From positions 6,830 to 70,829 of IMG/VR virus record IMGVR_UViG_3300005525_000034: a DNA stretch of 64,000 nucleotides; one strand, given 5' to 3'. A program made the position numbers and the translations under genes. Below are positions 30,075-54,090 of the stretch, one piece after another. The DNA comes from a virus. The stretch's first letter is position 1, and each line of letters starts with the position of its first letter. The notes under the pieces were generated by a model that worked only from the letters and a program-made list of their open reading frames with translations, did no database searches and had not been told where the DNA came from.

Positions 30075-31004
30075 TCAGCCCTTATCGACGTAGGTGATGG
30101 ATTTGGGGTAGTAGAGCGCCACGCCGGCGATCTTGGCCTCTGCAGGCACACTCCACGCCAGGTTTTTGGGCTGGGGTGGGTGGAACTTCAGCGGCATCGG
30201 CACGTGGAACTGGAGCTTCCCGGGATCGCGCTTGTAGATCACCATCCGGGGGGCACTGAGAGCGCCGCCGGAGTTGGCCGGATCAAGCTCATTGATGGGC
30301 TCAACCTGGGTGATGTACGGATTGGTGCGCAGAAAATACTCCAGCACCGTGGTATCGGAGACGTTGCTCCGGGGCGTGGTGCTGATCTTCCGGTAGACGC
30401 TGTAGGGAAGCAGCATCGTGTCCGGGCGCTCCACCATGTTCGAGGCGTTCACCTGGTAGGTAATGCCCTCGTTCAAGATGGCCAGCATCTGATCGGGGGT
30501 GACACTGGCGGAGTCGAACCAGCCATCGCTGGACGAGCCGGTGACCACGATCTTGTCGACCGTCGGGTGGTTGAAGAAACCCCGCAGGCCGGTACCGGGG
30601 TAGCCGAAGAGGGCCACCTTGTTGGCGCGGCGCTCGTAGGCGTCACGCACGGCGTCGGCGCGGCGCTGCTCCAGGGACACCTTGGCGAACTGCGCCTTGC
30701 GCAGCTCCTCGGTGGTGTAGACAAAGGAGCCGCCGAAGTTGCGGATCGTGTTGATGATCTCCCCGCGACGGACGTCGGAGGTGGGGAGATCACTGGCGAA
30801 GTCACCGACCAGGTCGAAGTCACCGACCTTGTCATAGATCTCGTACTTGTAGGTCTCGGCGCCTTCCGGGACCTCATTCGAGACGGGGACGATCCGCGAG
30901 TAGGGGATCTCCGCGTAAGTCTTCTCGAAAACCTTGGGCAGGATGTGCTCGAGTTCACGCAGGAGGAACACTCCCGGCGTGGCGTTGTCCATGCGAACAG
31001 TCAT
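30075..31004 (-). CDS. Major capsid protein (DUF2184 / HK97 fold)
   Basis: FLLRELEHI..KVFEKTY, GLRGFFNHP, PDTMLLP, GVALYYPKSITYVD; starts MTVRMDN. Confidence 0.88.
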   Translation of the reverse strand: MTVRMDNATPGVFLLRELEHILPKVFEKTYAEIPYSRIVPVSNEVPEGAETYKYEIYDKVGDFDLVGDFASDLPTSDVRRGEIINTIRNFGGSFVYTTEELRKAQFAKVSLEQRRADAVRDAYERRANKVALFGYPGTGLRGFFNHPTVDKIVVTGSSSDGWFDSASVTPDQMLAILNEGITYQVNASNMVERPDTMLLPYSVYRKISTTPRSNVSDTTVLEYFLRTNPYITQVEPINELDPANSGGALSAPRMVIYKRDPGKLQFHVPMPLKFHPPQPKNLAWSVPAEAKIAGVALYYPKSITYVDKG

Positions 31005-31018
31005 TGGTCGATGCCTCC

Positions 31019-31603
31019 TCAACCGGGTGCGGTGTCAGCGGTGAAAGTGAGCTGGGCTGGAGTGTTGATCTCCAGCGCCAGCACCAGGCCAGCAGCGCCG
31101 GCCTTGCGGATCACCCAGCCGCCGGCAGCCAGCGCGAGGGTGTTGCCATTGCTGGCGGTCTTGCCCCACTTGCCGGCATGGGTGCCGGATTTGTGGAAGC
31201 GCAGGGTGTCGCCAGGGCCGACCGCCTCCATCACCTCCAGGTAGATCGTCCCTTGGGTGAGGATGTTGACGGCCTTGAGGCTCGGGACCCCTTCGCTGTA
31301 GTTGGGGGCCGAACCGATCGCCGGGATGTTCTGCTTCTCCTGGGTGGAGGAGCGGGCAGTGATGCCGAGGATCGCGCCGGCGGCGGTGGCCAGCTGGCAG
31401 CTGTTGGCCAGAACGCCGCCGCTGTTGGCAACGACGGGGACGCCATAGGCCAGCAGGTTGCCGGTCTCGTTGGCGCCAGTGATCACCCGCAGGGTGGCGA
31501 GATCAGCGATCTGGCCGGGGAGGCCGCGATCGAGCTGCAGGGGGTAGTTGAACTGCGCGCCCTCGCCGGAGCTGACCGCAGTGGGCGTGAAGGTCTGAGC
31601 CAT
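31019..31603 (-). CDS. Capsid decoration/cement protein
   Basis: Between DUF2213 and capsid gene; GLPGQIAD, AYGVPV, VNILTQGTIY. Confidence 0.7.
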   Translation of the reverse strand: MAQTFTPTAVSSGEGAQFNYPLQLDRGLPGQIADLATLRVITGANETGNLLAYGVPVVANSGGVLANSCQLATAAGAILGITARSSTQEKQNIPAIGSAPNYSEGVPSLKAVNILTQGTIYLEVMEAVGPGDTLRFHKSGTHAGKWGKTASNGNTLALAAGGWVIRKAGAAGLVLALEINTPAQLTFTADTAPG

Positions 31604-31607
31604 GGGA

Positions 31608-32945
31608 TCACTCCTTGGTGATGGTGAGGGCCCGGCGGGAGTTCTCCTGCTGGGCGCGGATCATGCGCGCACGGGCCGCGTCCTGGCCGCCGGAATCGGC
31701 GGGGATGCCATTGATCGCGCTCAGCAGCGGGTCGGCGCTGTCGCTGCGGCCCATGCCCTGCTCCGCGTAGGCGTCGAAGGTGGCCGTCACGTAGTCGTCG
31801 CTGCGGCCCTCGAAGCGCTCCGGATCGACGCCGACCTTCTCGAGCGAATCGATCATCAGCTCGCGGTTACTGAGACCATCGAACGTGGGTCGTTCGCCGG
31901 TGATGGCCGTGGCGCGATCGATCAGCTCCAGGCGGGCGGTGACCAGGGCGTCGATGTCGAGGTCGTCCGCATCGGTGCGGCTGTCGATCTCGAGCTCGAG
32001 CGAGTCGAGTCGATCGACGAGGGCATCGAGGCGGCCCAGGTCGCGCTCATGGGCCTCGATGGCGTCATCGCGCTCGGCGCAGGCCCGGTCGTACATGGCC
32101 TTGGGCACCATCTTCCCGCCGCCGTCCTTCTTGGAGACCATGTAGGAGCCGAGATTGGCGGCGCCACCGCCGTCCATTTCGTCCTCGTCGCACTGTTCCA
32201 TTTCCTCGTCGTCACTGCCTTCCCGGGCCTCTTCGTCCTCCTCCATTGCCATGGGGGGAGGTGCCTTCTTCCTGCCCTTGGCGTCGGCCCGAACCTGGGC
32301 TGACAGGGCGGAAGCGAGGGCCTCGGTGGCATTGCTGAGCGCTGCCACAGCGGTCATGGAATCCTCCGTTTGGGGTTGTGGTTGGCCGTCGGCCGGGATG
32401 GGATCAACGGCGTAGGCGGAATCCATGTGCAACCGCACCTCAGGGCCTGCACGGCCCTTGCGCACGATCGCCACGTGGTTTCCTGAGATCTCCCTCTGGA
32501 CGCCGTCGTATCGCTGGCCGTCGGGGGTGACGCCGGGGGTGGCGTCGAACTTGACCCGATAGCCCACGGACACCTCACGGGCATCACCCCGCTTGATGGC
32601 GTCGATGGCCTCCCGGTCAGTGACCGTGACGAAGCCCACCGCGAACGGTGAGCGGTACTCGACCATCGATCCGGTGTGACCCCGCTGGTACTCCCGGCAC
32701 GTCTCAGGTGTCAGCAGCTCCGGCGGGTGCTCCAGGGTGACCGGGAGGTTCGCCAGGGAGAGCAGGGCGTCCTTGCGGGAGACCTCTTCCTCCGGCCGGT
32801 ACTCGATTGCCTCCTTCCCGTCCTGACGCCGATAGCGCTGCAGTCCGGTGCGCGCGAAGGTGGCATTGATGCGCAGATAGCCCTCGGGAGTTTCCTCCCA
32901 GTCGGACGAGATCTCGGCGCGATCAAAGCGCAGCGCTTCGCTCAT
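31608..32945 (-). CDS. DUF2213 putative prohead protease with C-terminal scaffold region
   Basis: TPEGYL..ATFARTG, PVTLEHP, REVSVGY, GNHVAIVRKGRAG; acidic coiled-coil C-terminal half. Confidence 0.85.
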   Translation of the reverse strand: MSEALRFDRAEISSDWEETPEGYLRINATFARTGLQRYRRQDGKEAIEYRPEEEVSRKDALLSLANLPVTLEHPPELLTPETCREYQRGHTGSMVEYRSPFAVGFVTVTDREAIDAIKRGDAREVSVGYRVKFDATPGVTPDGQRYDGVQREISGNHVAIVRKGRAGPEVRLHMDSAYAVDPIPADGQPQPQTEDSMTAVAALSNATEALASALSAQVRADAKGRKKAPPPMAMEEDEEAREGSDDEEMEQCDEDEMDGGGAANLGSYMVSKKDGGGKMVPKAMYDRACAERDDAIEAHERDLGRLDALVDRLDSLELEIDSRTDADDLDIDALVTARLELIDRATAITGERPTFDGLSNRELMIDSLEKVGVDPERFEGRSDDYVTATFDAYAEQGMGRSDSADPLLSAINGIPADSGGQDAARARMIRAQQENSRRALTITKE

Positions 32946-33678: not shown

Positions 33679-33987
33679 TCAGCCGTCTTGCGGCTTCCGC
33701 TTGCCCTTCTGATCACCGGCCTGCCAGCTCTCGCTGGCCGATCGGTTGAGCTCCACCATCGTGCGGGCCTCGCTGGCCACGTTCGCCCAGTCGATGCCGC
33801 CATCGGCCGCGGCCGGCTGGGTGACCTCTTTCTTGTTGCTCACCGCTGGATCGGCATCTGTCCGACTTGATCCTGACAGCAACTCAAGCCAGCGCCAATG
33901 GAGACGCTCGGCCTCGTTCAGATCGCCACGGTCCATGGCCTTTGGATAGGCCGCCCATGCCGTGATGTGCTCGGGGATGTTGCTCAT
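33679..33987 (-). CDS. Hypothetical protein downstream of kinase
   Basis: ATGA overlap with kinase stop. Confidence 0.6.
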   Translation of the reverse strand: MSNIPEHITAWAAYPKAMDRGDLNEAERLHWRWLELLSGSSRTDADPAVSNKKEVTQPAAADGGIDWANVASEARTMVELNRSASESWQAGDQKGKRKPQDG

Positions 33988-35342
33988 GCGGCCTCCCAGG
34001 CGGCGTAGTGGCGGTCAACGGCCCGGCGGAACCTCTCCAGGTGCTTGGGGCCGAACGTCCGGTCCCGGGCCGCTTCTGCTTGCCTGACGACGGCAGCAGG
34101 CAACGGCGGCAACAGGCCCACCATCCGTTCGGCCGTGTGGAAGTCAACGCCGGTCTTGACCAGCGCATTGGCCTGCTGGATGCGCTCGCCCGGGTTCTTG
34201 ACGGTGTCCTCAAACCCGGCGGCCCACTGCTCTTCGTCGAAGGCGTCGGTCACGTCCTTGTAAGCCTTGGCGGCCTTGAAGCTCATGCTCATGCCGTGGC
34301 CGACCAGACGATCGATCGAAGGCTTCAGGCGCGCCAGCCGGCGGCTCTTGGTGTCCGTGCCGTTGACCTGCTCGTTGATCTTGACCAGGTGACCGCCGAG
34401 CACCGCCAGCGCCGCGGCCTCGGTTCGGATCTTTTCGTGCGGCAGGGTGTTCTCCACCTTCCGGGCCATTCCCCAGTCGATCAGGGTCGGGGTGCCATCG
34501 GGGCCGAGCAGCACGTTGCCGCCGTGCAGATCGCCGTGATGAAAGCCAGCATCGGCCATGGTGCGGGCGATGCGTGCCACACCGGCGGCATAGCGGGCCA
34601 TGGCGCCAGGCTGGCGCAGCACCTCTGCAGCCTCCGGGGTGATGTCCATCGCCCGGTGGTCGGCGGCCAGCTTGACGCCGGGCAGCATTTCGTAGGCGAA
34701 GGCCAGCCGGCCGTCCTGCAGCTTCTGCACCGGGCCGATCGGGCGGGGCCCAAGGCCGAGCGCATGGGCGCGCTCCATGCTTGCCCGCTCGCGTTCGACC
34801 ATGTTGCGGCGCTGCGTCGGGCGGTCCGGCGGCTCGTAGCTGGTATCCAGCGGATCGCCATTGGTGAGGCGGTCGACCTTGACGACCACAGGCCCCGATG
34901 GCGTCTCGGCCATGAAGGTGTCCCCAAAGGCGCCGCCGCCCAGGGCCCGGGCCGGCGGCTGGCCGTTGATCAGCAGCGTCCCGTCGTCCTGCAACTTGAT
35001 GGCGACCGGCAGGGTGGCAGTGCTGTTGGCGCGGTCCTGGGCGGCACGGGCCTGCTGTTCAGCGGCGGCCCGCTCTCGTTCCGCCGCCTTGCGGGCCTGC
35101 GTCGCCTGATGCAGCTGCATGAAGCGGCTGGGCTTGGCGGCGGCCGGCGCTCCACCTGCACCCTTTCGGCAGGTCTTTCTCGGGTCGATCCAGCCGGCGC
35201 CGCACTTCTCACCACCGGGGCCCGGAGCGCCGCCGCCGGTGAGGTCGAGCGCCAGCTGGCCGGGGCTCACCTTGATCCGACGCGCATCCAGGCGATCCTC
35301 CAGGGCATCCAGGCGGATCTGCAGAACCTGGATCGGGTGCAT
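33984..35342 (-). CDS. Ser/Thr protein kinase-like protein with RxD/Cys leader
   Basis: LGGGAFG, VVVK, HGDLHGGN, IDWG catalytic motifs; N-terminal RLDA..GQLALD..CGAGWIDPRKTCR. Confidence 0.85.
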   Translation of the reverse strand: MHPIQVLQIRLDALEDRLDARRIKVSPGQLALDLTGGGAPGPGGEKCGAGWIDPRKTCRKGAGGAPAAAKPSRFMQLHQATQARKAAERERAAAEQQARAAQDRANSTATLPVAIKLQDDGTLLINGQPPARALGGGAFGDTFMAETPSGPVVVKVDRLTNGDPLDTSYEPPDRPTQRRNMVERERASMERAHALGLGPRPIGPVQKLQDGRLAFAYEMLPGVKLAADHRAMDITPEAAEVLRQPGAMARYAAGVARIARTMADAGFHHGDLHGGNVLLGPDGTPTLIDWGMARKVENTLPHEKIRTEAAALAVLGGHLVKINEQVNGTDTKSRRLARLKPSIDRLVGHGMSMSFKAAKAYKDVTDAFDEEQWAAGFEDTVKNPGERIQQANALVKTGVDFHTAERMVGLLPPLPAAVVRQAEAARDRTFGPKHLERFRRAVDRHYAAWEAA

Positions 35343-35345
35343 CGC

Positions 35346-35633
35346 TCAGGTGGCAGATGGGCTCAGCAGCAGAGCACTGGTCTCCGCGTAGGCCAAGTCT
35401 GCGCGCTGCGCCACCAGCGCAATCGGCGTCGAGGTGGCCTGGTTCTGGATCACGACATCTGCCCAGGCCTGCTCAGCGGGAGTGCTGCACAGGGGCGCGA
35501 AGGCCTCGATCTGGGCACCCAGACGCTGGCGTTCGGCGCCGGCCGCGGCCCGGTAGCGCTTCAGCCACTTCAGCATCCCGTCCTTGAGCGCTGGATCCAT
35601 CTGGGAATGGGAACCGGTGGCTGTCGCCATCAT
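35346..35633 (-). CDS. Hypothetical protein downstream of metallopeptidase
   Basis: ATGA overlap; 95 aa. Confidence 0.6.
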   Translation of the reverse strand: MMATATGSHSQMDPALKDGMLKWLKRYRAAAGAERQRLGAQIEAFAPLCSTPAEQAWADVVIQNQATSTPIALVAQRADLAYAETSALLLSPSAT

Positions 35634-37030
35634 CGCTTGACCTCCGGAGTGGCCTGGGCGCGTCGCAGCACGTCATCCACCCAGTCGTAGACCTCGGGCG
35701 ACCGCTGGCGTAACGCCGCCGGTGAGACGACGAAGGCGGTGAAGGCCTCTGCGAACATTTCCAGCCGGTTCGTCATCGCGTAGTCGCTGACGAAGTGCCG
35801 AGTGTCGCCAAGCAAGCCGCCAAGAGGGTTGCCGGGTTCGGCGTCGCGGATGTTGCCCTCCAACGCTGGGCTGATCTTCACGATCGTGTTGCGGGTATCG
35901 CCGGAGGCGAAGTGAACCATGTGGCCGACCTCATGGACATAGGTGGCCATCAGCTGATCATTGCGGGATGACAGGAATGAAGTGGTATAGGCGCCACCCT
36001 TGTAGCCGGGCTGGCCAAACTGGCTGACGTGCCGATCAAGACTTGCTGTCATCCCTTCAGGGTTGAGTCCGGCGCCCCTCCAGGCGGCGTCATCAGGATC
36101 ATCCATCATGCAGATGATGCCGTTTCGGTGTGCAAGGCCGCCGGCTCCTGGCCTGCCCATCAGCTGCGCAGCAAGCAATCGATAGTCCAACTGGAGCTGC
36201 TGTTTCGCCAGCTGCAGCTCTTGCTTCTGATGCGCGAGTGCTTCATGCGTGGCAGCAGGAGTATCCCACCCCATTCGGCGATCATCCTCCATGCTGGTTT
36301 TGATGTTCCGAATCTGGCCGTTCACATACTTCACTCGTTCTTTCTCGAAGACAATCTCGCCAACAATCCGCCTGATGTTCGGGCTGTTCACTTCCACCTT
36401 CTTCAGCACCTCCTCGCTTAGCAGGTGCTCCATGTCTGAATCCTTGATCGGCCCGTCGATCTTGCTGTCTCTGCGCAGGTGTGGAGCAATGCTGTCGACC
36501 GCGACCAGCACGTTGGAGCCCATCAGGAACTTGGCCATCCGGCGGGCATTCCGGCCCACCTCCCCGGGCTGATCGCAGAGCTTCAAGGTGGCCGCGGCCA
36601 GGGTGTTGCCGTCGTAGCTGGCACCAGGCCGGGCGATGGAGCGCGCACGCATGTGTTTCACGAAGGCCATGCGGGCCTCCGGTGTGCTGACGTCCAGCTC
36701 GTCATCGACGCGGGTGTGGCTGCCCGGTTCGACATACCAGGCCGGCTTGATGCCGGTGCGCTGGAACTTGTTGATCTCCAGCGTCAGCTGGTCGCGCTGC
36801 TGCGGCGTCAGGTTGCCGATGCCCCTCGGCTTGATCTCGCCTCTCGCCAGGGCCATCAGGCGCTCGGCCCGCTCTCTGCTCAGGCTGCTCTGCGGATCGC
36901 TGCGGCACTCCTTCTTCAGGCTGATGCAGGCATTGCCGCAGCTGTAGCCGGTCTTGCATTTCCGCTTGGCCGCATCGAGGCGCAGCTCCAGGGCCGCCAG
37001 CCGGCCGCGCAGGTCCATCAGATTGTTCAT
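35630..37030 (-). CDS. Zincin-like metallopeptidase with RxD/Cys leader
   Basis: TYVHEVGH ... SDYAMTNRLEMFAEAF; N-terminal RLDAAKRKCKTGYSCGNACISLKKECR. Confidence 0.8.
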   Translation of the reverse strand: MNNLMDLRGRLAALELRLDAAKRKCKTGYSCGNACISLKKECRSDPQSSLSRERAERLMALARGEIKPRGIGNLTPQQRDQLTLEINKFQRTGIKPAWYVEPGSHTRVDDELDVSTPEARMAFVKHMRARSIARPGASYDGNTLAAATLKLCDQPGEVGRNARRMAKFLMGSNVLVAVDSIAPHLRRDSKIDGPIKDSDMEHLLSEEVLKKVEVNSPNIRRIVGEIVFEKERVKYVNGQIRNIKTSMEDDRRMGWDTPAATHEALAHQKQELQLAKQQLQLDYRLLAAQLMGRPGAGGLAHRNGIICMMDDPDDAAWRGAGLNPEGMTASLDRHVSQFGQPGYKGGAYTTSFLSSRNDQLMATYVHEVGHMVHFASGDTRNTIVKISPALEGNIRDAEPGNPLGGLLGDTRHFVSDYAMTNRLEMFAEAFTAFVVSPAALRQRSPEVYDWVDDVLRRAQATPEVKR

Positions 37031-39228
37031 GCTCTGCCCCTCCGGATCCGCACGGCTCTGAAGACGTTGTTGAGGCCCCATACCCACCGGTCATACTCGC
37101 CGTGCTCGGGCACGATCCAGTCCTCGAAGCGGGGATCCCGGTGGCGCTCTTCCCGCCGCTGCTGCGCTGCGCTGATGTCGCCGGACAGGATCCGTGAAGC
37201 GGACATGAACCGCCGGCCGGCGATGTAGCGTTCTGCGTCAATGCCGATCGTCTGCGTGCGGGCGGTCCAGCGGTCGTCCTTCGAGAACTCCTCAGGCCCC
37301 CCGTAGCGTGTGATGTCGTCATCGATGTTCGCCTGGGAATCGTCGAACCACTCCCGCAGGTCCTGGCGGCCGGAGGCGTAGACCTTCTGCCGGATCTGCT
37401 CCGTGGCCCACTTGAGCTCCTCGGTGGTCATCCGCTGCATCACCGCCGCCTCAAACAGGCTGCCCGCCAGTCCCGGCGCCCCTTTGGGCTGTGGATAGCG
37501 GATGTAGCCGTCATCCCCGAAGAACGTCTCGTCGTTCTTGGTGGCCATCTTCTTCAGGCCCGTTGGCCGCGGCAGGCCCTCGCCTTTGGGCTTCAGGGGG
37601 CGTTCCGGGAAGCTGGGCCGCTTGGGCCTCACCACCCGTTGCTCTCGGCCGTCCTTGGGCTTCTCCTTCTGATCAGGGACGTCGCCCTGGCCCTTGCCAT
37701 CCAGGGGCTTGGCGCCGACGAAATTGCCCTCGGGCATCCAAGCGCCTCCCGGATACCAGTGGCCGTCCGGCCCGTGCTCGCCGCCCGGCTTGGCCCGGCG
37801 GAGCTTGACCACGACGCTCGGTTTGCGGGTGCCGTTCTTGGCCGCCTCGGCCTTGTGCCGTTCCCGCTCGGCCTTGACCACCGCCTGCTGCTCGGCGCGT
37901 TCGGTGCGGAGCTTGTCGGCCAGGGCCCGGGCTTCCTCGGGCTGTGGGTTGCCAATGCCGCGGGGCTTGATCTGTCCCTTGGCCAGCTGCTCAAGGCGGC
38001 TGATGCGTTCGCGGCTGGTGGTGGCAGTCGGCTGGCTGCGGCACTCCTTCTTGATGCTGATGCACGCGGCCCCGCAGGCGTAGCCGGTGCTGCAACGGCG
38101 CTTCAGGGCATCCAGGCGGGCCAGCAGGCTGTCGATCCGGTCGGCTGAGTCGGAGCGGATCGTGGCCTCTATTCCGCGGATCGTGGCCCCTATTCCGCCC
38201 CCCCTGGAAACGCGGGAGAAACCAGTCAGGGACTGGGATCTGAGGTCGTTTTCGTGGCTATTTTCGTTTCCGCCCGGATTGGAGCGGGTCTGCGCCATCA
38301 GCTTGGCCTCAGCACGCGCCAGGCGCTTCGCCAGATCTTCGCGGTTGCGGCGCAGATAGCCGCGCATCGCGGTCTGCCCCTGCCCCTTGTAGTCCCAGCC
38401 GCGTTTCTCCATCTCGACGGCTATCCAGCGGGCCCAGATGTGGGCTGCCTGCTCCTGGTCGGTGTCGACGCCGAGCTGATTCCAGATCTGATCCTGCTGG
38501 ACATCACCGGCGCGCCAGCTGCGGCGGCGATACCCCTCACGGGGCCAGCCCGGTGGTTCCTCCGACCATTCCCCGACCTCAAGCGGTGGCCGCGGCATGG
38601 CCCCAACCTCATCCCAGTCCTTCTGCCAGCGCTTCTCCTGCTGATCGAGCTCCTGCTGGGCCATGCGCAGCCTGGCCACGGTGCGAGCGCTGCTCTTGAG
38701 GCTGCCGAAGGCCTTGCGATCGGTCTCGCTCAGGAAGCCCATCAGCTTCAGGGCCGATTCAGCGCTGACGGTGCGCGTCTCGCCGCCCACCTCCACCTGG
38801 AACTGGTGGACGACGTTCCGGCCGGTTTCGACGTTGGCAATGCTCTTCTCCCAGTCGGAGACACGCTTTTCGACCGGTTCGCCGCGGTGGTCAACGTCTT
38901 CGGTGAGGGTCCACTGCCAGGTGTAGGCGGTGAGCTTGGCGCCGGTGGGACCCACGATCGGCTCAGGGAAGACGATCGTCTCCTTGGGCTTGCTCCGCTT
39001 GGCCTCATAGGGCCGATCGATGGGATCTCCCCCCTCCCCCTTGCGGCAGGTCTTCTTGGGATCGATCCAGCCGCCACCGCACTTCTCCCCGCCGCCGGGG
39101 CCCTTGCCAGCCGCCGGTGCGCCGCCGGTCAGGTCCAGGGCCAGTTGGCCGGCGGCCTCGGCGCGCCGGCGGGCATCCAGGCGGGCCTCCAGGGCACCCA
39201 GGCGGGTCAGCAGTGCGGTGATGGTCAT
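37027..39228 (-). CDS. Two-module protein with two RxD/Cys modules and unknown domains
   Basis: CGGGWIDPKKTCR near N-terminus; internal RIDSLLARLDALKRRCSTGYACGAACISIKKECR. Confidence 0.75.
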   Translation of the reverse strand: MTITALLTRLGALEARLDARRRAEAAGQLALDLTGGAPAAGKGPGGGEKCGGGWIDPKKTCRKGEGGDPIDRPYEAKRSKPKETIVFPEPIVGPTGAKLTAYTWQWTLTEDVDHRGEPVEKRVSDWEKSIANVETGRNVVHQFQVEVGGETRTVSAESALKLMGFLSETDRKAFGSLKSSARTVARLRMAQQELDQQEKRWQKDWDEVGAMPRPPLEVGEWSEEPPGWPREGYRRRSWRAGDVQQDQIWNQLGVDTDQEQAAHIWARWIAVEMEKRGWDYKGQGQTAMRGYLRRNREDLAKRLARAEAKLMAQTRSNPGGNENSHENDLRSQSLTGFSRVSRGGGIGATIRGIEATIRSDSADRIDSLLARLDALKRRCSTGYACGAACISIKKECRSQPTATTSRERISRLEQLAKGQIKPRGIGNPQPEEARALADKLRTERAEQQAVVKAERERHKAEAAKNGTRKPSVVVKLRRAKPGGEHGPDGHWYPGGAWMPEGNFVGAKPLDGKGQGDVPDQKEKPKDGREQRVVRPKRPSFPERPLKPKGEGLPRPTGLKKMATKNDETFFGDDGYIRYPQPKGAPGLAGSLFEAAVMQRMTTEELKWATEQIRQKVYASGRQDLREWFDDSQANIDDDITRYGGPEEFSKDDRWTARTQTIGIDAERYIAGRRFMSASRILSGDISAAQQRREERHRDPRFEDWIVPEHGEYDRWVWGLNNVFRAVRIRRGRA

Positions 39229-45938: not shown

Positions 45939-46376
45939 TCAGCGCAGGTTCTCGAGCTTGTAGAGCGTCGTGTCGACGAGGGTGAGAACCGTGTCGATGT
46001 CGTTCTGGATCTCGCTGTCAGTGGCGACACCAGCGCGCACGCGCCGGACGTAGTTGCTCAGCTGGGTCGTGAAGGCCACGGGGTCGTCATTCGGCTGCGA
46101 CGGGCCCATGGGGTAGCTCTGGATGATGCCGTATTTGCCCTGGTAGCTCTCGATCAGACCATCGGCCAGGTCCTCAAGCTCTTCGTAGAACTCGCCCAGG
46201 GCCGAGTGCTGGGAGAACGAGCGCGACTGCAGGTGGAGCAGGTGGGCGGCGGTGACGGCATCCAGCAGCGTCTTGAAGAACTCGGCCGCCACCGCGCGGT
46301 CGGTCGTGCCGGCGTCGGGGGCGTCCTGGCGGGCAACGAGAGATTCGTAGCCGGGGGCCCAGAAGGAAGGGGTCAT
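45939..46376 (-). CDS. Ferritin/Dps-like (DUF5856-type) protein
   Basis: HLLHLQSRSFSQHSALGEFYEELEDLADGLIESYQG; C-terminal TLYKL. Confidence 0.75.
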   Translation of the reverse strand: MTPSFWAPGYESLVARQDAPDAGTTDRAVAAEFFKTLLDAVTAAHLLHLQSRSFSQHSALGEFYEELEDLADGLIESYQGKYGIIQSYPMGPSQPNDDPVAFTTQLSNYVRRVRAGVATDSEIQNDIDTVLTLVDTTLYKLENLR

Positions 46377-46394: not shown

Positions 46395-47450
46395 TCAGGC
46401 GGAGCGCTCCAACACCTCGCGGTAGGCGTCCCGGCGAGAGGCGCTCCAGCGGTTGCGCAGCGCCAGGCGAGACAGGGTCAACTCCTTGAGCAGTTCGGCC
46501 AGATCGGGTTCCGCGGAGTCTTTGCGGCGGCTGGCCGCCTTGCGCGAGTCGGGCATGAAGGCCAACATCGAGTCCCGCATCTTCTTCAGCCGTTCCGGCA
46601 TGCGGGGATCACCGCCCTGGTCCGGGTGATGCTTCATCAGCAGCTTCCGGAACTTGGCACGCACCTCATCGGCGGTGGCCGTCTTGGGGTCCAGGCCGAA
46701 CACATGCCAAGGCCGGAAGTTCTTGATCACGTCAATGCCGTTGATCACGGTCGGACCGTCGGGCAGGCCTCTCTCATTGTCGGGAACACGCACATGAGCC
46801 CTATAGACCTTCAGCCAGTCCTCCTTGGTCCTTAGCGGGTTGTCAGAGCCTGACATCGCCATCTGGAACATCTCGTCTCGCTTCAGCTCCGCGACTGTCT
46901 TGACGCCGAACGTCTTAAGCACTGCGGCTTTCACGTCCTTCATGCTTGGGGCCTTACCGGCTCCCTTGCCAGAGGTCGCCGGGGCCTCGCTCTCGCCACT
47001 GCCTGATTCCTTGGCTGGCGCTTTCTTGGCAGGCTTCTCCGCTGCAGGCGCAGAGGCCCCGCCACCGGCATGCTTGACGATGGCGGTCACCTTCTGGGCC
47101 GCGGCCCCACCCTTGGCCTTGCAGATCTTCCCCTTCTGGATGCAGGTGGCGCCGCAGGGATAGCCGGTGGTGCAGTTGCGGGGCTTGCCTTGGGCGGCAT
47201 CCAGGCGCGGACTTGCCCACACCTCCTGGTCGGTCGCATCGGAGCGATCGCCACCGCCGCCGGCGCCGACCGGCCGGTAACGAACGGCGCCGCCGCCGAT
47301 TGTGTAATCAAACAGGACACCATTGGAGCGGAATCGCCCCGAAACGTCCCCGGTGTCTTTGGACGGGTTGACCGATAGGAGCTGCACCGGCCGGATCAGG
47401 GTCAGCAGTTCTTCTCGGACAAGGCGGGCAATTTCCTGAAGGTTAGTCAT
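46395..47450 (-). CDS. J-domain (DnaJ-like) protein with RxD/Cys module
   Basis: PWHVFGL...EVRAKFRKLLMKHHPDQGGD; RLDAAQGKPRNCTTGYPCGATCIQKGKIC. Confidence 0.8.
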   Translation of the reverse strand: MTNLQEIARLVREELLTLIRPVQLLSVNPSKDTGDVSGRFRSNGVLFDYTIGGGAVRYRPVGAGGGGDRSDATDQEVWASPRLDAAQGKPRNCTTGYPCGATCIQKGKICKAKGGAAAQKVTAIVKHAGGGASAPAAEKPAKKAPAKESGSGESEAPATSGKGAGKAPSMKDVKAAVLKTFGVKTVAELKRDEMFQMAMSGSDNPLRTKEDWLKVYRAHVRVPDNERGLPDGPTVINGIDVIKNFRPWHVFGLDPKTATADEVRAKFRKLLMKHHPDQGGDPRMPERLKKMRDSMLAFMPDSRKAASRRKDSAEPDLAELLKELTLSRLALRNRWSASRRDAYREVLERSA

Positions 47451-47453
47451 GGC

Positions 47454-49001: not shown

Positions 49002-49215
49002 TCACTATGGCTACCCGCCGCTGGATGAGCAGCGCTGTGAGAACTGCCGCTACAGCCGGCCGATGGCCGGGGTGAACATCACGGCCATGCGATGCGCGCG
49101 CCATGCGCCGCAGCTCTCCGAGGCCATCACCGTGGCTGCCTTCACGACCCGTTGGGGCTGTTGGCCGGCGGTGGTGCCGGAGAGCTGGTGCGGTGAATGG
49201 GGGCCGCAGCCATAG
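48994..49215 (+). CDS. Small Cys-rich protein
   Basis: GAGGAG RBS; CENCRY...RCARHAP...WP.V....WCGEW. Confidence 0.65.
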   Translation: MADHYGYPPLDEQRCENCRYSRPMAGVNITAMRCARHAPQLSEAITVAAFTTRWGCWPAVVPESWCGEWGPQP

Positions 49216-49223
49216 GCGTAGTC

Positions 49224-49394
49224 ATGAATGACCACTGCGTTTTCGACTACAGCCGGCAACCTCCCCGGCTGATCTGCACCCGCTGCGGCTACGAAGAGAC
49301 GATCACCCTGCCGATGCCGATCAGGCAGGTGGTGGTGATCAGCGACTCGTTCGTCATGGAGCACCGCTCTTGCAGGGAGGCTCCCGATGGGTGA
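49224..49394 (+). CDS. Small Zn-ribbon-like protein
   Basis: CTRCG ... HRSC. Confidence 0.5.
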   Translation: MNDHCVFDYSRQPPRLICTRCGYEETITLPMPIRQVVVISDSFVMEHRSCREAPDG

Positions 49395-49668
49395 CCCCAC
49401 CCGCTCGGATCGCCTGCGCCAGCTGGAACGGGCCTCAGCCCTGGCCCGCACAAGGCGCAGCCGCGCACGCAAGAAGGGCCTGCTGCCACTGCATCCTCTA
49501 TGCCCGGCATGTAGCCGCAAAGTCCTGCAGGAGAGGACACTGCCGCTGTGCAGCAGATGCTGGAGCCGCACGCCGGAGGGCCGGGCCGCGGCGGTGCAGC
49601 GGGTTCAGGAGTGGCGCCGCAGGAGGGCAAATCAGGCCTGCCTACCGTCAAATCAGCGTCAAGTTTGA
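49387..49668 (+). CDS. Basic Zn-finger-like protein
   Basis: CPAC...CSRC, Arg-rich. Confidence 0.55.
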   Translation: MGDPTRSDRLRQLERASALARTRRSRARKKGLLPLHPLCPACSRKVLQERTLPLCSRCWSRTPEGRAAAVQRVQEWRRRRANQACLPSNQRQV

Positions 49669-49670
49669 CG

Positions 49671-49844
49671 ATGACAGCCATGCGCCAGTGGTTCGTGACG
49701 GTGGCGGATGAGCCGCAGCGCACTCGAGATGTCCTGGTGCCGGGCCACAGCGCCTGGTCCGCCGGCTGGCTGTATCGGCACCTCCATCCGGGCCAGTCGA
49801 TCCTCATGATCCGGCCGGCCCAGAAGCGGCCTACAGGTCCCTGA
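49671..49844 (+). CDS. Hypothetical protein
   Basis: Short ORF ending the plus-strand block. Confidence 0.4.
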   Translation: MTAMRQWFVTVADEPQRTRDVLVPGHSAWSAGWLYRHLHPGQSILMIRPAQKRPTGP

Positions 49845-51198
49845 CCTCGGCCACCACCGCCTCGTAGGCCATCCGGGCGTTGGGATCGAGCCAGCCCCGC
49901 CGGGGACACCAGACCGGATCACCCGACGGCCAGGGCCTTGAGCCGGCGTTGCGCGGGTCATCGCTGGGGATGCCCGGCCTGGCCTTTGTCTGGGGCAGCG
50001 CCGTCTTCTCCATCAGCGGGAAATCCCGGGGGCCCCGGGCCTGTCCTGCCCCCCCGATCGGCTTCATCGCTGCCCCCTCGCCGTTGAGCTCCTCGAAGTG
50101 GCGCTGCACCGCCGCGGCCGTGGCGCGGGCCTCCGCCTCCCAGGTGCCGTCCTCCCCCTCGGAGAAGGCGTTCTGCAGGGCCAGGCTCTCCAGGGTCACC
50201 GGGGCGAGGTCACAGCGGCATTTGGGGTGGATCGGGGTCTTGACGCTGCCGATCCAGTAGAGGCAGCCGGCGCGCGGCGCGCAGAACTCGCAGGTGCGGT
50301 CGTCCAGGGTGGCGACGTACTGCACGAAGCCCACCCGCAGCTTGCGATAGGTGCGCTCCTGAGCCTCGCCGCTGGCCATCAGGGTCTCGGTGCGGGCGAT
50401 GGTCTCGGCCCGGTTGCGGAAGGCCTCGTTGACGTTGGGGATCGCCTTCTGCAGCTCCCGCTTGAGGCGGCGGGGATCGGGCCCGCTGGCCATCTGCCGG
50501 GCGGTGAGGAAGCTCACGGTCTCCCCCCAGTGCCGCCACCACTTGAAGTAGTAGTGCTTGCTGGCGGCCACGTGGGCATCGGTGGCGATGTCCCGCTGGC
50601 GCCGGTAGTTCATCGCCAGGCTGCGGAAGTCCCGCTCGGCGGCGGCGATCGAGCCGGCCATGTCGAACAGGCGCGAGAAGCGCTGCCCCTCCTGGTAGCG
50701 GCCCTGCTCACGGTCAGGCCACTGCTCCAGCACCGGATCCCGCTCTGGCGGCCGCTGGGCCGCGCGCAGGGCCGGATCGAGCTCATCGCGGGTCATCTGG
50801 ATCGCATACTCGGTGCCGACGTCCTGGGCCCGGATGAACAGCTCCGCCAGCTCTTCCTCCAACCGCAGCTCCTGCTGGGGGGTGAGCGACAGCTCGGTGA
50901 GCACCCGGCGCAGGTCCTGCAGCAGCTGCCCCTCGAGGTAGAGGGCCGCCTGGTTCTTCTCGATGGGGGTGATCGGCACCGGCCCGTCCGGAGTGGAGCC
51001 GGCGAAGGCGCCCGGGGTGGTGATCGGGTCGTACTCCGGCTGGGCTTCGATCCCATCGAGCAGGCGCATCACCCTCCGGATGGTCTGCCGCAGGGCGCTT
51101 TCCCAGATCTGGCCGATGCGCGCGATCTGTTGGTCCTCGAGGCCGCGGAGCTCTTCGCTGAGCTGCTGGGCCAGCTGTTCCCGCCGCTCCTGGCTCAT
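49831..51198 (-). CDS. MuF / SPP1 gp7-like minor head protein
   Basis: RAETIARTE, YVATLDDRTCEFC, PIHPKCRC. Confidence 0.88.
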   Translation of the reverse strand: MSQERREQLAQQLSEELRGLEDQQIARIGQIWESALRQTIRRVMRLLDGIEAQPEYDPITTPGAFAGSTPDGPVPITPIEKNQAALYLEGQLLQDLRRVLTELSLTPQQELRLEEELAELFIRAQDVGTEYAIQMTRDELDPALRAAQRPPERDPVLEQWPDREQGRYQEGQRFSRLFDMAGSIAAAERDFRSLAMNYRRQRDIATDAHVAASKHYYFKWWRHWGETVSFLTARQMASGPDPRRLKRELQKAIPNVNEAFRNRAETIARTETLMASGEAQERTYRKLRVGFVQYVATLDDRTCEFCAPRAGCLYWIGSVKTPIHPKCRCDLAPVTLESLALQNAFSEGEDGTWEAEARATAAAVQRHFEELNGEGAAMKPIGGAGQARGPRDFPLMEKTALPQTKARPGIPSDDPRNAGSRPWPSGDPVWCPRRGWLDPNARMAYEAVVAEVRDL

Positions 51199-51434: not shown

Positions 51435-51660
51435 GGCGCCCCTCCAGCTCGTCGGCGTAGTGGCGCATCTGGTGAGCGGACCACCGAACTCCGGTGTGCT
51501 CCTGGTAGCCGTGCCAGATCGAGTCGGCCTCGGTGAGATCTGCCGCAGCGCGGAGAACAGCAGCAGCAATCAGCCGGCGGGTCGGCTCATGGTCGTAACT
51601 GCGGTGCATAGCCCCCAGCACCTTCTGCGCGCCAGGGGAAAGCGGCGGTCGATCAGCCAT
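51427..51660 (-). CDS. Hypothetical protein bounded by 24-bp direct repeats
   Basis: IAAAVLRAAAD...ADELEG; GGAGG RBS. Confidence 0.6.
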   Translation of the reverse strand: MADRPPLSPGAQKVLGAMHRSYDHEPTRRLIAAAVLRAAADLTEADSIWHGYQEHTGVRWSAHQMRHYADELEGRHG

Positions 51661-51676
51661 GGCGCCCCTCCAGCTC
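51427..51676. repeat. 24-bp perfect direct repeat at 51427-51450 and 51653-51676
   Basis: TCAGCCATGGCGCCCCTCCAGCTC twice. Confidence 0.9.
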
Positions 51677-51997
51677 CTGCAGGATGAGCTCAAGACGGGC
51701 CAGGGCGTTCCAGGCCGTGTGGGCCGCATGGAGCAGCCCGGAGTCGGGATCGCACTCCAGGCCCTGGGCCTCCTCCAGCAGGTGGCGCCAGAGGGCATCG
51801 GTGTAGCGCTCCTGCCCGGCGGGGACGCTGCGCCAGCCATTGTCGGTGTATTTGGCCGCCCCGAAGGTGCCGACCTGGGCAACCTTCTCGAGGGCCCGGC
51901 TGAAGCCCCCCAGCACCAGGCCGCAGCGGGGCTTGCCGGCGTCCAGTTTCGCGCCGGGCTCATGGGCGCTCCGGCCGGTGGGATCGAGCTCAACCAT
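51653..51997 (-). CDS. dATP/dGTP diphosphohydrolase-like protein (DUF5664 type)
   Basis: GAKLDAGKP...VAQVGTFGAAKY..NGW...RY.DAL.RHL...DPDSGLLHAAH.AWNAL. Confidence 0.8.
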   Translation of the reverse strand: MVELDPTGRSAHEPGAKLDAGKPRCGLVLGGFSRALEKVAQVGTFGAAKYTDNGWRSVPAGQERYTDALWRHLLEEAQGLECDPDSGLLHAAHTAWNALARLELILQELEGRHG

Positions 51998-54090
51998 CAG
52001 TCCTCCACCTCATAGGCATCGCAGCGGACGCCCATGGCCACCAGGTCGACGCTGTCCAGCCGGCGCACGGTCGCATCAGGGCCGGCCGCGGCCTGCAGGG
52101 CCTGTTGATCGGCCACGCCCACCACTGCGAACCAGTCGCCGCAGGAATCCATTACCTCCCACAGGCCCGTGGGATCGGGGCCGACCACCGCCTGATGGGG
52201 CGTGGGGGTGCCGTAGGGGCCGATCAGGGGGCCGGTGCCGTCGGCGCCCACATCGACGATCACCCCAGCGACCTTCAGGCGTGCCGGCAGCTCCCAGGCG
52301 TCCTCGCGCACGGTGCGGCGGCGGCCGGCGCGCCGGCGCGGCCTGCTCTTGCCCGCGATCGACAGGGCGATGGCGATCGCCTGCTTGCGGCCATCGGGAT
52401 AGCCCACCTTTCCGCGATGCTCACCCTTCTTGCCGGTGCCGGAATGCAGCGTGCCGTGCTTCCAGCGGTGCATCACCTGGCCGACCTCGTCGGGGTGGGT
52501 GTGGTTGGCCGGGTCATCGTCTTCTTTCTTGCAGCTGCTGCCGTCGCAGTCGTCCTCGCACTCATGCCCGCGGGCGCAGGAGGCGCAGCAGGCCTCCTCG
52601 GCCGCGTCGGTCGTGGGGCGCTGCTGGCCGCCGCCGGCGACGTCTCCCGCCAGGGCGGCGCCATCGAGGCCCGGGCCCTCACCGCCCGGCTGCCCCTGAT
52701 CCTGGCCCTGCTGCTGGCCGAAGTCGCCACCGAACTGCACCTGGCTCATGTCCTGCTCTTCCTCCTTGATTGAGCCGTCGGGCTCCCGATCGATCAGGGT
52801 GGTGTCGAGCGAGAACTCAGGCCGCCCGAAGCGCGCCAGGGCCACCTCGTTCGGCGTGAGCACCCCGGCCTGGATGTAGGACACATCGGCCGCGGCCACC
52901 TGCTGCCGCAGGCCAGCCATCTCCTCGTCGTTCATCACGAAGGTCGGGCGGAACTGCACCCGCCAATCCTCCGGGGGCTCCCCGGTGAACGGCCCCTCGC
53001 TGCACTTCATCAAGGTTTCGTAGAACTGCCGCAGTGGGTCCTGCAGGTAGTCCTCCTGGTACTCGGCGACGTCCTGCGCGAAGCCCCGATCCTCGCTGCG
53101 GCCGGTGGCGCCCAGGCCGCTGGGACTCTCCCCCCAGAGCTTGGTGTGGGGCATGCCCGAGGCGCCGGTCACCTCCTGAGTGAGGCGATCGAGCACATCG
53201 GCGACGCCGGCCGCCGAGCGGGTGATGAACTGCGCATCCTCGTTGGCATCCAGGACCAGGGCCCGATAGACGCCGCGAGCCATCTGGTTCACCTCCAGCC
53301 GGCGGGTGATGGCCTCCTGGTTCCCGCTGCTGATCATCTGGCCCAGGCCCGGGATCTTGTGGACAAACTGGTCGAAGTCATGGAGCAGGGCCGCGGCGCT
53401 GGTCTGCCCGGTTTCGTAGCGCTTGAACACCTCCCAGATCGGTTGCAGCACTGACACCCCCCACCAGTTGAAGTGGGATCGCCACCGCCAGGGCACCTCC
53501 TCCCCCTCGAAGCGCAGCACGCGGCTGCCGTGGATTCTCACGGTTTCGGCCCCCTGAAGGCCGAGCTGCGCGAGGTCGTTGTCGCGGTTGGTGTTGAACT
53601 CGTAGCTCTCCGGCTGGCCGATGCCGGACCAGCCCGGTGCGGGCCAGATCCGCCAGCGATCGAGGGCGTAGAGGCCCTTGATCCGTCGGAGATTGCGCCA
53701 GTTGATCGGCTTGGCGAAATCCTGCACGCCGTCGTCGACCAGCATGATCAGCACGGCGCCACCCTGATGCCGCGCCAGCTGCACCGCCCGCCGGACGTGT
53801 TTGCGCAGCCGCAGCCTTTCCCCGGCGGCGACCAGGGCGTCGGATTGCTTGCGGGCCTTCCTGCTGTCGTCTCCCAGGGCGATGTCCCAGCCCATCCGGG
53901 TGGCTTCGGAGGCCCAGAGGTTGACGACCTTGCGGCACAGCCAGCTGTTCAGGTAGAGGCTGTCCAGGTCGGCCTGGTTCAGAAACTCCGGTGTGGCGAT
54001 CATCGTCGCCGTGGTCCGATCGCGCGTGGTGCCCATGCCGGTGAGGGCGTTGACCAACACCCCGTCCTGCCGTTCCTCGAACTCCGCCAT
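51997..54090 (-). CDS. Portal protein (DUF1073 family) with C-terminal extension
   Basis: LY..SWLCRKVV...A.EATR.G, IHGSRVLRF, SGMPHTKLWGESPSGL; C-terminal DUF6496-like KQAIAIALS. Confidence 0.85.
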   Translation of the reverse strand: MAEFEERQDGVLVNALTGMGTTRDRTTATMIATPEFLNQADLDSLYLNSWLCRKVVNLWASEATRMGWDIALGDDSRKARKQSDALVAAGERLRLRKHVRRAVQLARHQGGAVLIMLVDDGVQDFAKPINWRNLRRIKGLYALDRWRIWPAPGWSGIGQPESYEFNTNRDNDLAQLGLQGAETVRIHGSRVLRFEGEEVPWRWRSHFNWWGVSVLQPIWEVFKRYETGQTSAAALLHDFDQFVHKIPGLGQMISSGNQEAITRRLEVNQMARGVYRALVLDANEDAQFITRSAAGVADVLDRLTQEVTGASGMPHTKLWGESPSGLGATGRSEDRGFAQDVAEYQEDYLQDPLRQFYETLMKCSEGPFTGEPPEDWRVQFRPTFVMNDEEMAGLRQQVAAADVSYIQAGVLTPNEVALARFGRPEFSLDTTLIDREPDGSIKEEEQDMSQVQFGGDFGQQQGQDQGQPGGEGPGLDGAALAGDVAGGGQQRPTTDAAEEACCASCARGHECEDDCDGSSCKKEDDDPANHTHPDEVGQVMHRWKHGTLHSGTGKKGEHRGKVGYPDGRKQAIAIALSIAGKSRPRRRAGRRRTVREDAWELPARLKVAGVIVDVGADGTGPLIGPYGTPTPHQAVVGPDPTGLWEVMDSCGDWFAVVGVADQQALQAAAGPDATVRRLDSVDLVAMGVRCDAYEVED

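Follow-up and report, generated by a model that had tools for sequence, protein, structure and literature searches.

The head gene module of a virus contig, IMG/VR record IMGVR_UViG_3300005525_000034, raises the question of whether a short motif scattered through its proteins, Arg-x-Asp followed by a small residue (R-x-D↓small, the arrow marking the predicted scissile bond), is the cleavage code of a head maturation protease, and whether this protease is the DUF2213 protein encoded in the same module. The stretch analyzed, referred to below as the window, comprises 64,000 nucleotides (bases 6830-70829 of a single 70.8-kb contig; G+C 65%), in which genes and gene sets were called from open reading frames (ORFs) and the pattern of GC content by codon position (GC3), without existing annotation. 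A preliminary description of this sequence had proposed that DUF2213 is an Asp-specific maturation protease recognizing R-x-D. The core of that proposal was upheld, and we consider it likely that DUF2213 is a head-maturation serine protease of the assemblin/T4 gp21 fold that cuts after Asp in [R/K/H]-x-D↓(small or polar residue) inside the procapsid. Four independent lines lead to this core inference: the fold together with its invariant candidate catalytic residues, a family-wide signature in the scaffold part, the positional conservation of R-x-D, and the Edman N-terminus of the capsid protein of phage TLS. We infer both that DUF2213 acts on the R-x-D sites and which of the individual sites are used.

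To our knowledge, head-maturation proteases of known specificity cut after Glu (T4 and phiKZ-like phages) or Ala (herpesviruses) or have only loosely defined sites. At the level of annotation, a protease label already exists, as PHROGs and RefSeq name the family "head maturation protease" while Pfam lists it as uncharacterized. Apparently new are the Asp-specific [R/K/H]-x-D↓ code, the breadth of its distribution in the family, and the modular leaders of the cargo proteins; a search of the literature on DUF2213 and on Asp-specific prohead cleavage found no description of the code, and the available portions of the papers mentioning DUF2213 held no functional claim.

Enrichment of R-x-D in head proteins

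Motif counts were compared with expectations from 2000 per-protein shuffles in three sets of window proteins: head (15 proteins, 6836 aa), tail (19 proteins, 8293 aa), and other (14 proteins, 3439 aa). RxD[ASGN] occurred 42 times in the head set against 11.7 +/- 3.4 expected, a count reached by 0 of the 2000 shuffles, and the narrower RxD[AS] occurred 36 times against 6.9. The tail set held 5 (8.2 expected) and the other proteins 2 (4.3 expected); the enrichment over tail proteins, which the preliminary description had proposed as a check, was borne out. Control motifs in the head set were flat, both with an exchanged key residue (RxE[ASGN], 13 vs 14.1; KxD[ASGN], 6 vs 6.2) and with the same composition (reversed [ASGN]DxR, 15 vs 11.7; shifted R..D[ASGN], 9 vs 11.6). 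When all 8000 a-x-b-c patterns were scanned in the head set, RxDA ranked third (25 vs 4.65) and RxDS sixth, and only patterns belonging to a repeated Cys module outranked RxDA. Of the 42 sites, 13 fall inside paralogous modules of the putative cargo proteins, each composed of an RLDA helix and a Cys motif; after these modules were masked (338 residues), 29 sites were left against 10.7 expected (z 5.8).

Every motif quoted in the preliminary description was located in the sequence, including MTVRMD↓N of the capsid protein, MAEFEERQD↓G of the portal, and ARQD↓A of the DUF5856 protein; RAD↓A, RLD↓A, RLD↓S, RTD↓A, and RSD↓S of the C-terminal half of DUF2213; RED↓A, RLD↓S, and RCD↓A of the portal tail; and RLD↓A, RRD↓S, RFD↓S, RID↓A, RSD↓S, RND↓S, and RKD↓S of the cargo proteins. 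MSEALRFD at the DUF2213 N-terminus likewise carries the motif, but the residue that follows is Arg rather than a small one.

The predicted protease domain of DUF2213

The gene and its parts are as follows.

31608..32945, minus strand: gene of the predicted DUF2213 protease-scaffold fusion, 445 aa from the ATG at 32945 (PF09979; PHROG 530; AlphaFold2 [AF2] model with mean predicted local distance difference test [pLDDT] score of 81)
32922..32930, minus strand: R6-F-D8 at the DUF2213 N-terminus (R in 147/151, D in 143/151 family members)
32421..32909, minus strand: predicted protease domain, residues 13-175 (fold match, conserved residues, pLDDT)
32727-32729, 32568-32570, and 32475-32477, minus strand: candidate triad His73, Ser126, and His157 (invariant in 151/151)
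32421..32429, minus strand: H-M-D175↓S at the border of protease domain and linker, predicted self-cleavage site (D175 invariant in 151/151)
31611..32420, minus strand: linker and helical scaffold half, residues 176-445 (conserved sites, predicted helices, match to Pa193 gp24)

A longer ORF extends up to a TTG at 33026, and residues 44-199 of this long form matched PF09979 with 153.8 bits (cut-off 22; E 5.4e-45), which places the protein in the family; PHROG 530, "head maturation protease," was matched with an E value of 7e-81. Among 1.84 billion cluster representatives, 11,799 relatives were found at E<=1e-3. The family alignment used throughout consists of the best 150 of these and the query (151 rows), and a 104-row alignment agrees with it. 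A tblastn search matched 1751 phage records, among them those of T1-like phages of Klebsiella and Escherichia as well as Pbunaviruses, vibriophages, and cyanophages.

In the AF2 model, block-mean pLDDT was ~96-98 over most of residues 13-175. The top Foldseek match of this domain was T4 gp21 (5jbl; E 4.2e-4, prob 1.00), followed by the proteases of Epstein-Barr virus (EBV), pseudorabies virus (PRV), Kaposi's sarcoma-associated herpesvirus (KSHV), human cytomegalovirus (HCMV), and herpes simplex virus (HSV). VIA-align superposed the domain on T4 gp21 with a Z score of 11.6 (rmsd 2.7 A, 130/164 residues aligned) and on herpesvirus assemblins with Z scores of 6-9.6; its first 38 entries were all gp21 or assemblins, after which came unrelated MCE-domain proteins with Z scores of 5.6 and below. 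The modeled domain thus shares the fold of the assemblin/T4 gp21-type capsid maturation proteases. His73, Ser126, and His157 were invariant in all 151 rows, in an order that corresponds to the His...Ser...His triad of assemblin, and they probably form the catalytic triad; the titles of Protein Data Bank (PDB) entries name S134A and H157A as catalytic-site mutants of the HCMV protease. Also invariant were G43, G89, Y129, G138, Q150, G167, and D175. Arg50 and Arg165, invariant as well, may contribute to a putative basic S1 pocket. NCBIfam returned no match for the DUF2213 protein, and a feature search of the ESM Atlas with residues 1-185, an atlas that lacks a model of this protein, was uninformative, giving unnamed clusters and a 12% YonD_N cluster. 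A Pfam scan of 40 window ORF translations revealed no other head protease.

At the N-terminal R-F-D, the residue after Asp (P1') varies within the family (R 56, F 18, V 15) and is R in the window. Cleavage is improbable at sites within folded domains, examples being RAD↓A at residue 115 of the major capsid protein and four sites of the protease domain.

The scaffold half and the family-wide signature

The C-terminal part of DUF2213 is helical and joined to the protease domain through a linker, an arrangement that, judged from the model, is that of a protease-scaffold fusion. AF2 predicted helices at residues 198-222 and 282-437 and assigned low pLDDT to residues 178-196 and 227-275. The profile of the C-terminal half matched the scaffolding protein gp24 of phage Pa193 (9b40_G; E 2e-20; phmmer, E 1e-9), and PDB sequence searches returned only this protein and coiled coils. 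Across the family, residues at the domain-linker border take the form [R 82 / H 37 / K 10]-[L/M]-D (151/151)-[S 63 / A 47 / G 14], with 118/151 members fitting [RKH]-x-D-[SAGTN]. Further candidate cuts in the linker and scaffold follow D221, D274 (KKD↓G), D294, D307, D314, D325, and D402.

Over the 151 DUF2213 proteins, RxD[AS] was found 644 times against 74.8 expected. In the parts C-terminal to D175 (33,980 aa), RxDA ranked first of the 8000 patterns (288 vs 33.9), with KxDG, RxDG, and RxDS also within the top 7. A GNH motif allowed 64 of the 151 proteins to be split, and in their C-terminal halves the controls fell below expectation (RxE[AS], 10 vs 20.8; reversed, 8 vs 22.0; shifted, 6 vs 21.3). 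The scaffold segment G-R-x-D-A-L coincides with a family-wide R/K-x-D-A/S position (D307 in 132/151, R/K305 in 127/151). In 11 homologues with 45-73% identity, the R-x-D sites keep their position in the linker and scaffold although the surrounding linker is unalignable, and the motif therefore behaves as a short linear motif. Across all 151 proteins, RxD was most often followed by A (458), with G (241), S (186), and R (68) next in frequency. Of the R-x-D↓small code as first described, Asp at P1 stands, whereas P3 is R, K, or H across the family.

Capsid protein, portal, and other head proteins

The head proteins searched for sites, apart from the large cargo candidates, are the following.

30075..31004, minus strand: major capsid protein, 309 aa, with predicted removal of the leader MTVRMD (motif at 30987-30995; PF09950, E 1.7e-52)
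31019..31603, minus strand: cement/decoration protein (PF22758, E 8e-20)
45939..46376, minus strand: DUF5856 (Dps/ferritin-like) protein with an 18-aa candidate leader ending in ARQD↓A (46323-46331); PF19174 match from residue 48; PHROG 858
49831..51198, minus strand: MuF/SPP1 gp7-like head morphogenesis protein (PF04233, E 1e-8; TIGR01641)
51997..54090, minus strand: portal, 697 aa (PF06381, E 1.6e-68)
54064-54072, 52300-52308, 52054-52062, and 52018-52026, minus strand: portal candidate cuts at D9, D597, D679, and D691

Among 120 capsid homologues (52-100% identity), 119 carry R-x-D within the first 10 aa, behind leaders of 3-8 aa that vary in sequence. RAD↓A(115), inside the capsid protein, lacks conservation in L010, a related contig with a 77% identical capsid protein, and is probably not used. 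The portal presented a similar picture. Its candidate cuts all lie outside the Pfam portal match (residues 42-402; a PHROG 146 match spans 7-476). Of 120 portal homologues, 97 contain a TGxG anchor and 23 do not, and in 93 of the 97 anchored ones R-x-D↓G stands exactly 7 residues upstream of TGxG, behind leaders of 3 to ~50 aa. Over the same 120 proteins, RxD[ASG] was depleted in the portal core (residues 40-470; 19 vs 66.4 expected) and enriched in the C-terminal extension (441 vs 51.6), where a tail of the form ...R-R-L-D↓S...R-C-D↓A-Y is conserved. The cement protein contains 0 R-x-D, and the single RxD of the MuF protein (RCD↓L) falls within the MuF domain.

The C-terminal extension of the portal (~215 aa; 51997-52650, residues ~480-697) is a mosaic of Gly/Gln-rich, Cys/Asp-rich, DUF6496 (E 4e-8), and Arg-rich segments. 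NCBI gives one database protein, 92% identical to the portal, the name "anti-CBASS Acb1 family protein," presumably an artefact of how members of the PF06381 portal family are named.

Related phages and the mature terminus of the TLS capsid protein

The published Edman sequence of the mature TLS capsid protein is ASDMGIW, according to the available text of the report (PMC11447400). In the TLS RefSeq capsid protein (15072-16061; PF09950), this sequence stands directly after ...QLRGAKND, and BLASTP aligned K30-N-D32 of TLS without gaps with R4-M-D6 of the window protein. One published mature terminus in a homologous phage, K-N-D↓ASDMGIW, consequently fits the proposed code, and gp33 of TLS is itself a DUF2213 protein. 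Proteolysis of head proteins by DUF2213 is putative, with this terminus as indirect support. The portions of the TLS paper available name neither a cleavage motif nor a link to DUF2213 (PMC11447400).

The enrichment of the motif in head proteins seen in the window recurred in TLS, S-CBS4, and L010, the exception being PB1, which is considered below. In TLS, [RK]xD[ASG] occurred 15 times in head proteins (3.3 expected), 8 times in tail proteins (6.9), and 4 times in others (7.7). In T1, the corresponding capsid site reads KQD↓A, the portal N-terminus bears KHD↓G, and the scaffold half contains eight KxD[ASG]. The Synechococcus siphovirus S-CBS4 is the nearest named relative of the virus (54% identity in the capsid protein and 46% in the DUF2213 protein), and its head proteins held 10 motifs against 3.5 expected. 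The virus of the window is cyanophage-like, at ~71 kb. In the head set of L010, 18 sites were counted against 5.0 expected, and 15 of 24 window sites were conserved there, compared with 9.0 predicted by how well other R and D residues are conserved.

Shigella phage Sf11 had been considered as a counter-example, with no RxD enrichment and mass spectrometry coverage of its capsid protein from residue 40; it was dropped because Pfam does not match its gp41 to DUF2213 and its capsid protein is of a different family (DUF6260).

Putative cargo proteins with RLDA helices and Cys modules

Between the MuF-like and DUF2213 genes lie several large genes whose products are candidate cargo of the head.

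46395..47450, minus strand: 351-aa cargo candidate with a J-domain-like HPD segment (DnaJ, E 5e-6, 27.0 bits, just below the 27.8 cut-off)
41327..45871, minus strand: 1514-aa putative cargo polyprotein (motif sites; no Pfam family)
39225..41330, minus strand: 701-aa putative cargo protein with LPD1 and HExxH (PF18796, E 6.1e-14, 52.3 bits, cut-off 27)
37027..39228, minus strand: 733-aa putative cargo protein with N-terminal RLD↓A at 39175-39183 (motif sites)
35630..37030, minus strand: 466-aa putative cargo protein with HExxH (weak Peptidase_M90 match, E 8e-4, below cut-off)
33984..35342, minus strand: 452-aa kinase-like putative cargo protein (partial APH, ABC1, and Pkinase matches)

Five of these proteins start with a helix of ~20 aa or less that ends in R-L-D-A, and behind it stands a Cys motif of one of two kinds: type A, C-x-T-G-Y-x-C-G-x-x-C-I-x3-K-x-C-R, found in the genes at 39225-41330, 35630-37030, 37027-39228, 41327-45871, and 46395-47450; or type B, PGQL...C-G-x-x-W-I-[x/D]-P-x-K-x-C-R-K, found in those at 33984-35342, 37027-39228, and 41327-45871. 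No Pfam model covers either motif, and both mark the starts of cargo modules, perhaps as metal-binding elements or disulfide knots. The unit of RLDA helix and Cys motif recurs inside the 1514-aa, 733-aa, and 351-aa proteins. In the 701-aa protein, the N-terminal helix leads through RLD↓A (41271-41279) into a type A module, and RND↓S lies 17 aa from the C-terminus; with LPD1 in a large multi-module protein of the head module, it has the features of a large polyvalent protein. The 466-aa protein has the same beginning (helix, RLD↓A at 36974-36982, type A module). The 733-aa protein has an internal RSD↓S-RID↓S-RLD↓A cluster ahead of a type A module; the 1514-aa protein carries an N-terminal RLD↓A (45815-45823) and 8 more RxD[ASGN], several directly ahead of Cys modules; and the 351-aa protein carries RSD↓A, RLD↓A (47199-47207, ahead of its type A module), RKD↓S, and RRD↓A. 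The preliminary description had read the cargo RLD↓A as a mark of cleavage; the sites are indeed there, but they form part of a conserved helix module. Among 34 homologues of the first 90 residues of the 701-aa protein, 43 type A modules were found, joined in these metagenomic relatives to LPD1, Zeta-toxin, kinase, or M90 domains; in 38 of the 43, R-[LIW]-D-A occupied positions -8 to -5 relative to the first Cys.

The cargo helices resemble a helix of the scaffold. The kinase-like protein begins with RLDALEDRLD↓A (35286-35294), similar to RLDALVDRLDS of the scaffold helix (32004-32033), and aligns to scaffold residues 305-329 with a z of 5.4; of 7 cargo helices in the window, 6 have scaffold residues 304-329 (GRLDALVDRLDSLE) as their best alignment (z 2.0-5.4). 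This likeness suggests, at the level of sequence, that cargo may be loaded by scaffold mimicry. A complex prediction for scaffold residues 280-350 with residues 1-45 of the kinase-like protein scored 0.26 against a mark of 0.32, without controls, and speaks neither for nor against binding. Tentatively, and with less confidence than we place in the protease itself, the R-L-D-A helix of the cargo can be read as a copy of the scaffold helix (GRLDALVDRLDS), with cargo entering by co-assembly and the same protease freeing it at R-x-D↓A. The cargo would then comprise the kinase-like, the two HExxH, the J-domain-like, and the Dps-like proteins together with the 1514-aa polyprotein, and the mature effectors would each be left capped by a small Cys module.

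As a separate observation, residues ~590-650 of the 1514-aa protein contain VVNGHNRLALAKRLG, a segment with a tentative resemblance to ParB/sulfiredoxin-type nuclease domains; at E<=0.01, the protein matched no Pfam family.

Proposed processing and alternative explanations

Under the preferred interpretation, the protease would be joined to the helical scaffolding half via a disordered linker and would free itself at H-M-D175↓S, and the linker and scaffold would be chopped into pieces of ~7-77 residues able to exit the shell. The six-residue leader MTVRMD would be taken off the capsid protein and a nine-residue leader off the portal, whose C-terminal extension would be trimmed as well; packaged cargo would lose N-terminal helices of 12-20 residues, and cargo polyproteins would be cut at module junctions.

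Several observations weigh against this interpretation. The 13 of 42 head sites that sit in the heptad-like RLDA helix module could be conserved for a structural or targeting reason, and four scaffold sites lie within a confidently predicted helix (residues 282-324). The small P1' of the preliminary description holds in the scaffolds, where A, G, or S follows, but not at capsid N-termini, where N, T, D, or E is frequent beside A. The homologues entering the counts are related rather than independent samples, and the z-scores therefore overstate independence. Residues 1-192 matched DUF2213 only, with no hit to Pfam Peptidase S77, S78, or S21 at E<=10, a search in which the HMMER filters drop many weak matches. 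Comparison of the 104-sequence alignment by hhalign was not significant for either HK97 gp4 (prob 1.7%, single-comparison E 0.029), where Ser126 was placed on Ser114 without significance, or Mu gpI (prob 0.2%). The TLS authors surmise, from an alignment with phage Rogue1, the removal of 45 residues, as given in the available text (PMC11447400); in the RefSeq protein, the Edman sequence from the same work begins at residue 33, so that 32 residues would be removed, and we therefore rely on the Edman datum and flag the discrepancy. Finally, PB1, a Pbunavirus with DUF2213, showed no enrichment of [RK]xD[ASG] in its head proteins (1 vs 3.3). Its capsid protein (D64; 7218-8366), portal (D76; 1112-3421), and DUF2213/scaffold protein (5172-6569) carry A-M-D↓S in its place, so that the basic P3 is not universal and depends on the lineage; A-M-D↓S is possibly the Pbunavirus version of the code, without the basic P3. 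The capsid model of E217 starts at residue 66 (PMC10329688) and the portal model of Pa193 lacks the first 93 residues (PMC11456595), as stated in the available parts of both papers, and these starts, which lie near the A-M-D↓S positions of PB1, fit Asp at P1 only loosely.

The most serious alternative, which we still regard as unlikely, is that the scaffold, capsid, and portal sites are cut while the cargo RLD↓A remains uncut and forms the face of an amphipathic helix (heptad R-L-D-A-L-x-x) for targeting or oligomerization, copying the scaffold helix. The fixation of R-[LIW]-D-A in type A modules comes with conserved neighbors (L-E-A before, x-[KR]-R-[KR]-C after), a second RLD stands seven residues upstream in ~17 of the 43 modules, and the preference of the cargo helices for scaffold residues 304-329 would be accounted for as well. 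The matching scaffold segment G-R-x-D-A-L, however, is itself a family-wide R/K-x-D-A/S position; cargo proteins also have sites outside the helices, at junctions and near C-termini, such as RND↓S, which is kept as RRD↓S in L010; and the enrichment survived the masking of the modules. It is far less probable that no cleavage takes place at all and that R-x-D[AS] is a structural signature, kept by common descent, of helical or coiled-coil head-internal proteins and of the starts of N-arms. Many sites do lie in predicted helices, the profile of the C-terminal half weakly matches coiled-coil proteins, and the counts come from related sequences. Such an explanation sits poorly with the Edman N-terminus exactly after the aligned K-N-D, with a motif kept in disordered, unalignable linkers, with leaders of variable length ahead of an invariant R-x-D, and with the reversed motif, which was not enriched in the head set and was depleted in the 64 scaffold halves. 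Moreover, Arg and Asp at i/i+2 do not have the spacing of a helical salt bridge. Least probable of all, in our estimation, is cleavage of the sites by another enzyme, whether one of the packaged zincin-like HExxH cargo proteins (466 and 701 aa, one with a weak Peptidase_M90 match and the other with LPD1) or a host protease. The head regions of TLS, T1, and S-CBS4 keep both the motif and the DUF2213 gene with no large cargo genes annotated in the stretches examined, the strongest signal lies in the C-terminal halves of the 151 DUF2213 representatives themselves, and it is the DUF2213 domain that has the fold of known head proteases.

Comparison with known head maturation systems

T4 gp21 works inside the prohead on capsid, scaffold-core, and internal proteins and cuts after Glu (L/I-x-E), and the internal proteins of T4 carry N-terminal targeting leaders that it removes. 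It is the best structural match of the DUF2213 domain, and the five cargo N-terminal helices ending in RLD↓A resemble such capsid targeting sequences, their targeting role being putative. DUF2213 differs in sequence (12-13% identity; no Pfam S77 match), in its fusion to a scaffold, in its basic P3, and in having Asp rather than Glu at P1 (151/151 at the domain border; RxE[AS] depleted in the scaffold halves). The herpesvirus assemblins (varicella-zoster virus [VZV], PRV, HSV, HCMV, KSHV, and EBV) share the fold and the His...Ser...His order. Assemblin is made as a scaffold fusion, releases itself, and cuts Ala|Ser, the last being a difference from DUF2213, along with an identity of only 13-18%. 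With HK97 gp4 (Peptidase S78), the likeness is confined to a local motif around the serine (EVSVGY against GMSVGF, Ser114; also REIS...), where the roles of His65 and Ser114 of gp4 are assumed by us; the hhalign result was not significant and Pfam S78 was not matched.

Prohead proteases of phiKZ-like phages have Glu at P1 and a small residue at P3 (S/A/G-x-E). They differ in these positions from the Asp and basic residue seen here, belong to a different phage group with a different genome size, and contrast with the scaffold fusion of DUF2213. What the jumbo-phage enzymes phiKZ gp175 and SPN3US gp245 have in common with it, as far as the accessible text of the reports goes, is a short consensus with an acidic P1 that marks many head and ejection proteins, such that a cleavage map can be read from sequence (PMC5694885, PMC7411985, PMC10052503). 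The Drexlerviridae T1 and TLS have the same gene set (PF06381 portal, annotated DUF1073 in TLS; MuF; DUF2213; decoration protein; PF09950 capsid protein), and the TLS capsid protein is processed after K-N-D, homologous to R-M-D of the window; they differ in having Lys rather than Arg at P3 (low-GC hosts), a leader of 32 aa rather than 6, and no large cargo polyproteins annotated in the head regions examined. Pa193 gp24 (PDB 9b40), a sequence homologue of the DUF2213 protein, has its gene immediately upstream of those for the cement and capsid proteins and is characterized solely as a putative scaffolding protein, not as a protease. Under the five-fold vertices, its residues 286-326 remain in place as a helix-turn-helix, and the available text leaves its cleavage open (PMC11456595).

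If the proposed activity is correct, an Asp-specific enzyme with a basic P3 would represent a new specificity within the assemblin fold, and a three-residue code would predict mature capsid, portal, scaffold, and cargo termini from sequence. The code would guide the building of cryo-electron microscopy models, for example, around the unexplained missing N-termini in E217 and Pa193, and would single out the products of the head module that become packaged and then ejected into the host. The DUF2213 family is very large, and T1 and TLS are tractable Escherichia coli phages in which the idea is directly testable. Should the mimicry of the scaffold by cargo also hold, the same three residues would be both the boundary of a loading tag and the processing signal for a swappable arsenal of ejected proteins, and this loading and processing code could be read in the 11,799 DUF2213 cluster representatives.

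Organization of the window

The head module occupies the minus strand, with the tail genes downstream of it. It starts with the portal, a dATP/dGTP diphosphohydrolase-N protein, the MuF/SPP1 gp7-like protein, and 2.4 kb without coding signal; continues with the 351-aa J-domain-like and DUF5856 (Dps-like) proteins, the cargo-like proteins of 1514, 701, 733, 466, and 452 aa, and two small ORFs; and ends with DUF2213, the cement protein, and the capsid protein. The second of these genes (51653-51997), between those for the portal and MuF proteins, encodes a 114-aa protein that has the N-terminal domain of dATP/dGTP diphosphohydrolase (PF18909, E 5.6e-27) and holds 0 RxD. The ~2.4 kb at 47450-49830, between the MuF-like and 351-aa genes, contain no ORF with the codon-position GC pattern of the genome and have a lower G+C (~62-63%); no tRNA, no Rfam match (E<=0.1), and no Pfam match among 10 ORF translations were found there, only weak repeats. 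Elsewhere, the window encodes an endolysin, a sigma factor, ThyX, a dCTP deaminase, a KilA-N protein, and the large terminase subunit TerL. The genes for the sigma-70-family factor (54200-55243), ThyX (56184-57224), and the dCTP-deaminase-like protein (57253-58041) occupy the plus strand, opposite to the head module; they lie in the ~7 kb that separate the portal from the terminase gene (61419-62906).

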